This document shows positions 60,901 to 61,466 of a stretch of 64,000 nucleotides of DNA, piece by piece. A program made the translations under genes and the position numbers. Location of the stretch: the NCBI RefSeq assembly GCF_036971445.1, contig NC_091471.1:169756001-169820000 (forward strand). The letters are read 5' to 3'. Positions within the stretch are counted from its first letter, which is position 1. Every line of letters starts with the position of its first letter. The notes under the pieces are model-generated. The model saw only the letters and a program-made list of their open reading frames with translations. It ran no database searches and had not been told where the DNA came from. The DNA is from Narcine bancroftii (taxonomy: Eukaryota).

Positions 60901-61222
60901 TCTCCTGGCTGCTGAGTCCCGATGCTCAGCAGGTACCTGGCATAGACCAGGTTCGTAGGGATCTTGTACATAGCCTCGGATGGCTCTTAGTCAGTGCAGT
61001 CCTTGATGGCCTTGAACGTTTGAGGGCCAAAGTTTGTGTGGAGTACCACGAGGTGCTTCAGGTTCGTGTTGATGACCTTGGTCTGTGTTTGGATGACTGC
61101 CTTGATGGTGTGCTTCCAGATTTCGAAGCATGCCTGGGCTTTCGGGTGCTGAGGGTTGATCTCCAAACTTCCGATTGTCAGGAACTTCTCCATGGTCATC
61201 TTCAAATTTTAGCTGAATAAAT

Positions 61223-61466
61223 TGTGACATGCTGTGGTAGCAGCAAGCAGACACAAAACACTGCATTGCAAGCTTTATTCTGCTAAAAGTCTGTACACAC
61301 CAGTTTCAGCTGTGGTGGCTCCTGAGTGACTGACTCAGGAGGTGCAGGCTCAGGCTTATATTCGGGTCGGCTGATTGACAGCCGGCCAGGCGGAGTCAGC
61401 CCCAGGTGGTCCTTCTGCAGGTACAGAGATCGCCCCCTTCAATAAGCTAGTGGTCATATCACCATA
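61223..61466 (-). repeat. Gypsy 5' LTR
   Basis: tgtgac...caccata, with a minus-strand aatataag near 61354-61361 and aataaa at 61274-61279. Confidence 0.93.

Follow-up and report, generated by a model that had tools for sequence, protein, structure and literature searches.

A compact lineage of Ty3/Gypsy retrotransposons that lack a chromodomain carries, at the primer-binding position, a sequence that pairs with 13-16 bases of the element's own long terminal repeat (LTR), and the comparison of its families makes it probable that these elements prime reverse transcription with their own RNA instead of a tRNA. The pairing itself is a real feature of the whole lineage, and it points to a variant of a known self-priming mechanism, which among animal elements has so far been attributed chiefly to Tf1/sushi chromoviruses. 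Another, very widespread lineage without need of a tRNA would bear on whether hairpins or tRNAs came first as primers of LTR elements, a question raised in the available part of PMC3601003. Elements of this clade would be overlooked by tRNA-based annotation, and they would lack the site which, according to the portion of PMC7472051 at hand, is targeted by 3' tRNA fragments in tRNA-primed elements. Young copies with identical LTRs in the genome of the ray Narcine bancroftii make the RNA ends directly mappable.

The element that led to the lineage lies in a window of 64,000 nucleotides from this genome (contig NC_091471.1, positions 169,756,001 to 169,820,000), to which all coordinates below refer. 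It is a 5.2-kb decayed Ty3/Gypsy copy on the minus strand (61466-56300), flanked by a 5-bp target-site duplication that matches exactly on the 5' side (61467-61471) and the 3' side (56295-56299). The duplication and a two-LTR comparison set the ends of the 5' LTR (61223-61466, 244 bp) and the 3' LTR (56300-56517, 218 bp), which are identical at 187 of 210 aligned columns. Between them follow, on the minus strand, gag (60452-61193; start codon at 61193, the frame being broken by a stop and frameshifts), an aspartic protease (59646-59969), the reverse transcriptase (RT), RNase H and start of the integrase in several frames (58007-59676), the remainder of the integrase without a chromodomain (56889-57384), and a polypurine tract (56518-56530). 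Gag and the integrase remainder were delimited by tblastn with full-length relatives, gag also with the list of open reading frames; the protease and RT segments were recognized by tblastn and by Pfam matches (PF13975/PF13650 and RVT_1, respectively). Two LTRs, the target duplication, the polypurine tract and the Gypsy order of gag, protease, RT, RNase H and integrase place the element, despite stops and frameshifts throughout, in Ty3/Gypsy, and the Ty3 Gag-Pol is the best match among solved structures (E 1.8e-62). A foreign insertion of about 600 bp on the plus strand (57385-57990) interrupts the integrase and is missing in the sibling copies L225, L226 and L231; its open reading frame at 57350-57913 has no Pfam match and looks like CR1 LINE sequence from the 3' end.

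The preliminary description of this DNA had noted an absent tRNA site, an early gag start and a complementarity between the LTR and the primer position, and on these points it was borne out. Read in the minus-strand sense, GTCACA closes the 5' LTR at 61223 and no TGG follows; after a single spacer base (61222) comes the post-LTR arm (61207-61221), to which none of 27 host tRNAs offers a complement longer than 7 nt, and the gag ATG lies soon after it. The post-LTR arm (61221-61207) is the reverse complement of an LTR arm (61288-61274) at 14 of 15 positions across a loop of 52 nt, the one mismatch being that of the window copy. The LTR arm is the predicted self-primer; it ends with AATAAA (61279-61274) and recurs in the 3' LTR at 56372-56358.

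The complementarity in the window element is confirmed. Its anchored duplex score is 12, against a shuffle mean of 2.9, and none of 300 shuffles scores as high, whereas the host DNA that follows the 3' LTR scores 2-5 in 13 control elements. That AT-rich words match by chance, or that a tRNA site was lost in the window copy only, would have some appeal given the AT-rich arms and the weak z-scores of whole-region folding (-1.6, -0.6 and -1.0, none significant). We nevertheless regard this explanation as practically negligible: in each of 26 families the observed score is reached by at most one of 300 shuffles, the 3'-flank controls stay low, and sibling copies have the same site, so that the sibling and permutation tests refute it. 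Predicted arm pairing has a median of 0.96 in 26 folded copies of the window family and of 0.98 across 24 families. The window copy is predicted not to form the duplex from an upstream start (pairing probability 0.01; 0.24 in a short RNA), and with its one mismatch the primer duplex is predicted to lose out to a hairpin internal to the LTR. This second hairpin (61248-61284, minus strand, and the corresponding part of the 3' LTR) could likewise cover AATAAA in both LTRs.

Both arms are kept in 28 of 30 sampled loci of the window family that retain the junction between LTR and gag, and a TGG start after the LTR was found in none of the family's loci examined. Three middle arm positions vary by subfamily, with the change present on both sides. 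At these positions (-8 to -10) the two arms of one copy match at 2.29 of 3 pairs on average over the 28 copies, compared with 1.33 for arms crossed between copies, and none of 10000 permutations attains the total observed; copies within a subfamily descend together, so that this covariation stands for a few events and not for 28. A young sister family in the same genome has LTRs that are up to 100% identical and an RT-RNase H region almost identical to a Narcine bancroftii protein. Its arm sequence is different, and yet positions -1 to -14 are paired in 66-69 of 69 copies (70 loci taken from 150 listed, 69 of them readable). Pairing at -15 drops to 22 of 69 copies, the post-LTR side being variable there and the LTR side almost fixed. 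L220, L222 and other members of this young family combine identical LTRs and target duplications of 5 bp with long open frames that span about 1,400-1,500 codons. In one locus (L021, 1750-1807) the beginning of the post-LTR arm comes after an LTR, and behind it stands an inverted partial copy of the LTR, possibly an aberrant product of reverse transcription.

The arrangement extends far beyond the ray. Besides sharks and rays, which also supply the closest named proteins to the window element, the hosts of named relatives are a damselfly, a mussel, spiders, an octocoral and crustaceans. In a metagenome sample of 80 loci, the gag start and the DNA upstream of it could be read in 42, and the best inverted repeat within the 220 bases before gag (score at least 10) has its downstream arm at the site or a few bases from it in 38 of these 42; the other four, without a strong duplex, comprise one truncated, one decayed and two unreadable loci. 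Wherever both LTRs end within a metagenome contig, the order is CA, one base, arm. In many invertebrate families (L065, L067, L073, L076, L085, L096 and L128) the entire leader from LTR to gag consists of the paired arm of 15-18 bases.

For a comparison between families we used 26 representatives, 23 from metagenomes and three from the ray genome. Positions -1 to -13 are paired in 24-26 of them, -14 to -16 in 20-21 and -17 in seven, and the arms of one family match on average at 12.5 of 13 pairs, compared with 8.7 for arms crossed between families (0 of 10000 permutations). These counts overstate the independence of the families, because the representatives were picked by hand after the arms had been seen and some are related; the family table omits L092 and L055, where the anchored search matched false sites, and L059, which belongs to the window's family. 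Both outcomes that the preliminary description named as refuting its reading are contradicted: the arms are conserved and covary, and neither the family nor the lineage shows a TGG site. Compared with near-identical siblings, locus L078 has one mirrored change in both arms, a pattern that either copying of the primer into the site or selection on the pairing would produce; in another family a mismatch at -14 is common to most copies. The 3' edge of the arm is constant, with AAA followed by (A/G)CC. A small hairpin starts at the first base past the arm in 17 of 25 families (5.7 expected; 0 of 2000 shuffles); by this strict test it is missing in the window-family representative and in the young sister family.

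A tRNA primer finds no place at these sites. The longest complement to any part of 27 distinct host tRNA genes (13 anticodons) is 5-7 nt and that to a tRNA 3' end 1 nt, which agrees with the earlier reading that a tRNA-complementary site is lacking. As a control, the element L216 from the same genome, which we take to be Mag-like from its RT motifs, pairs with tRNA-Ser(GCT) over 14 nt; L216 and L217 form a young Mag-like family with this 14-nt primer site. It has to be considered that a tRNA fragment or another host RNA might serve as primer, with the match to the LTR being incidental, since half-tRNA priming is found in some Copia lineages (according to the part of PMC6317226 available) and the tested tRNAs cover 13 anticodons only. 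The short best matches speak against such a primer, and the arm sequence varies by family, following the LTR of each; this largely refutes the idea and leaves it very improbable.

Self-priming is therefore well supported by the comparative evidence, as the preliminary description had proposed: the paired sequence sits at the primer position, no tRNA fits, and the site of each family follows that family's own LTR. If the steps are modelled on those of Tf1, the RNA would fold back in its 5' part and lay the LTR arm on the primer-binding position, and the element's RNase H would cut directly past the final AAA of the arm. The new 3' end would then be extended over the loop of 20-69 bases up to the cut, and the resulting short DNA would jump to the same bases in the 3' LTR. 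In Tf1 the RNA's initial 11 bases pair, and RNase H makes its cut between bases 11 and 12, as stated in the accessible part of PMC7175516. A "pretzel" of three duplexes with flanking helices is described in the part of bioRxiv 2022.12.06.519325 at our disposal. In the present lineage the flanking duplex of such a pretzel is unsupported, with a mean z of 0.15 for pairing between the post-site sequence and the loop (one of 27 below -1.65) and a mean z of -0.31 for the fold of the loop. The present duplex also differs from that of Tf1 in being usually 13-16 bp long and in often ending in the poly(A) hexamer.

A primer of the same sequence might instead derive from the 3' LTR of the genomic RNA or, in trans, from short LTR-only RNAs, and be trimmed to the AAA. 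Such a source would be at hand, the arm being present in both LTRs and its 15-mer having 178 exact matches in the genome, compared with three for a control word, and it would allow pairing to run to -13 to -16, beyond the conserved A at -11, even if the RNA starts at -11. This route would, however, need the poly(A) tail to be taken off along with the bases downstream; the fold in cis already has a high predicted probability, and the portions of the literature at hand hold no precedent, so that we judge it distinctly unlikely compared with priming in cis.

Where the primer begins depends on the start of the RNA, for which the LTRs offer candidate signals. In the window element a TATA-like word (61355-61361, minus strand), conserved in most family copies and of presumed function, stands 87-88 nt upstream of where the arm ends. 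A word that resembles the initiator consensus (61328-61333) places a candidate transcription start at 61331, 29 nt past the TATA-like T. Three ray families, that of the window among them, share such an initiator-like word and a TATA-like word whose distance to the end of the arm is 85-88 nt; in the two families other than that of the window this spacing is 85 nt. From these words, transcription in the ray families is predicted to begin 52-58 nt upstream of the point where the arm ends and the cut would fall. The primer may then be internal, unlike that of Tf1 and as the preliminary description had suggested, with the arm about 40 nt inside the transcript, and it would be longer than the 11 nt of Tf1. 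The TATA-like word was also considered as a decayed duplicate of the arm, which was rejected in view of its conservation at a fixed spacing. A 9-bp stem at 61319-61341 (minus strand) holds the initiator-like word in or beside its loop, and this inverted repeat is conserved in most copies of the family.

Most invertebrate families are without a TATA word. The arm has an A at -11 in 22 of 26 families and a G at -10 in 23 of 26, and the triplet A-G-T at -11 is conserved in most invertebrate families. It resembles an initiator and could mark a Tf1-like 5' primer of 11 nt; pairing usually continues 2-5 bases upstream of the conserved A. A splice acceptor, as another reading of the AG at -11/-10, was rejected, given that pairing runs through it and upstream in most families and that two ray subfamilies are without the G. 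Three sets of presumed RNA contigs that match the young family cover the whole LTR and reach host sequence on both sides, as DNA does, and hence say nothing on start sites or splicing.

In arms with AATAAA the duplex would also conceal the 5' poly(A) signal. Past this signal the window element has a GT-rich stretch (61248-61261, minus strand), likely the downstream element, a role assigned from LTR structure as outlined in the available part of PMC3601003. AATAAA or ATTAAA stands at the arm end in 16 of 26 families, and a canonical hexamer is missing in the remaining 10; in L062 an AATAAA lies in the loop, outside the duplex. The suggestion that the stem silences the 5' poly(A) site survives as a plausible side effect for the window family; as a general function it fails, because 10 of 26 arms have no hexamer and the AATAAA of L062 is unpaired. 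Masking is thus at most a side benefit. If the duplex mainly served to hide the signal and another primer were used, the frequent hexamer at the arm end would be accounted for, as would the use of sequence beyond the LTR, by which the duplex forms at the 5' end only. In retroviruses, too, use of the 5' poly(A) site has to be held back (PMC3694450, in the part available). This reading is contradicted by the same 10 arms and by L062, leaves the element without a primer and offers no reason why the arm should begin one base past the LTR; we consider it unlikely. Self-priming accounts for the position of the site, and more tentatively we entertain a combined scenario, possible yet doubtful as a whole: independently of Tf1/sushi, the clade would prime without tRNA by cutting its RNA about 50-60 bases into the transcript, at the 3' edge of the poly(A) signal, and one helix would thereby both yield the primer and shut off the 5' poly(A) site, while the primer would be copied into the site and keep the arms in lockstep.

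By their domains these elements are not Tf1/sushi chromoviruses. None of 37 relatives has a match to a chromodomain or to SH3_Tf2-1 at E 0.01, whereas fish chromovirus references carry both. In RT-RNase H trees without Tf1 or fungal or plant chromoviruses, the lineage forms one clade (support 100/100) apart from the sampled fish chromoviruses, Mag-like elements and elements that we take to be Gmr1-like from their motifs and domain order. The deep forks are weak (54/43), and a test on 22 of 47 rows does not reject chromoviruses as the sister group (p-AU 0.374). Self-priming in the clade is likely independent in origin from that of Tf1/sushi.

One close parallel in mechanism is offered by Tf1/Tf2 of Schizosaccharomyces pombe, Tj1, Tosmo1-3 and the Tf1/sushi group, which are likewise Ty3/Gypsy elements with a primer site complementary to their own LTR; the present lineage differs from Tf1/sushi in lacking a chromodomain and in its separate RT clade. 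Plant Tcn1 chromoviruses and TAR Copia elements (Houba, Osr-1) are predicted self-primers, recognized by an identical sequence rule that asks for no fewer than 10 bp of the LTR to be complementary to a site 0-5 bp after the 5' LTR, but they belong to other lineages and hosts, and the survey gives plant non-chromoviruses tRNA primers (PMC6317226, as far as its text was available). Fungal GalEa Copia elements with their Conserved Hairpin Site also have an inverted repeat at the primer position and no tRNA site (PMC5445492, available portion); in GalEa both arms are located past the LTR, the first of them being palindromic, whereas in the present lineage the partner lies inside the LTR. In retroviruses, RNA structure around AAUAAA in R/U5 is likewise involved in suppressing the 5' poly(A) site, with U1 snRNP in HIV-1 and in foamy viruses (PMC3694450, in the part at hand). 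In the present lineage it is the primer position, beyond the LTR, that supplies the partner, and in many families the arms pair with no canonical hexamer present. The polyA hairpin of HIV-1 suppresses the 5' poly(A) site.

We found no description of self-priming in this clade in the available portions of the literature, including PMC4600332, PMC6238403 and PMC13524379; supplements, Butler 2001, the Levin papers or Repbase reports might name it. As to the named mollusc/annelid clades MolGy, PolGy and Cigr-1, the RT motif of the present clade is missing from the paper text and from 11 of the 14 supplements of PMC8556966, and the term "PBS" occurs in the main text of neither paper on them. No relative was detected in the viral contigs searched, and an Atlas search with gag matched unnamed clusters only.

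Other Gypsy groups share the ray genome. L218 and L219 represent an abundant family with the integrase before the RT, which is the Gmr1-like order; the sequence after the LTR of L219 does not start directly with TGG. The decayed chromovirus L213 (G000:C5, near 67.17 Mb) matches SH3_Tf2-1 and ends in a chromodomain-like tail; sushi-type elements are thus also present in the ray genome.
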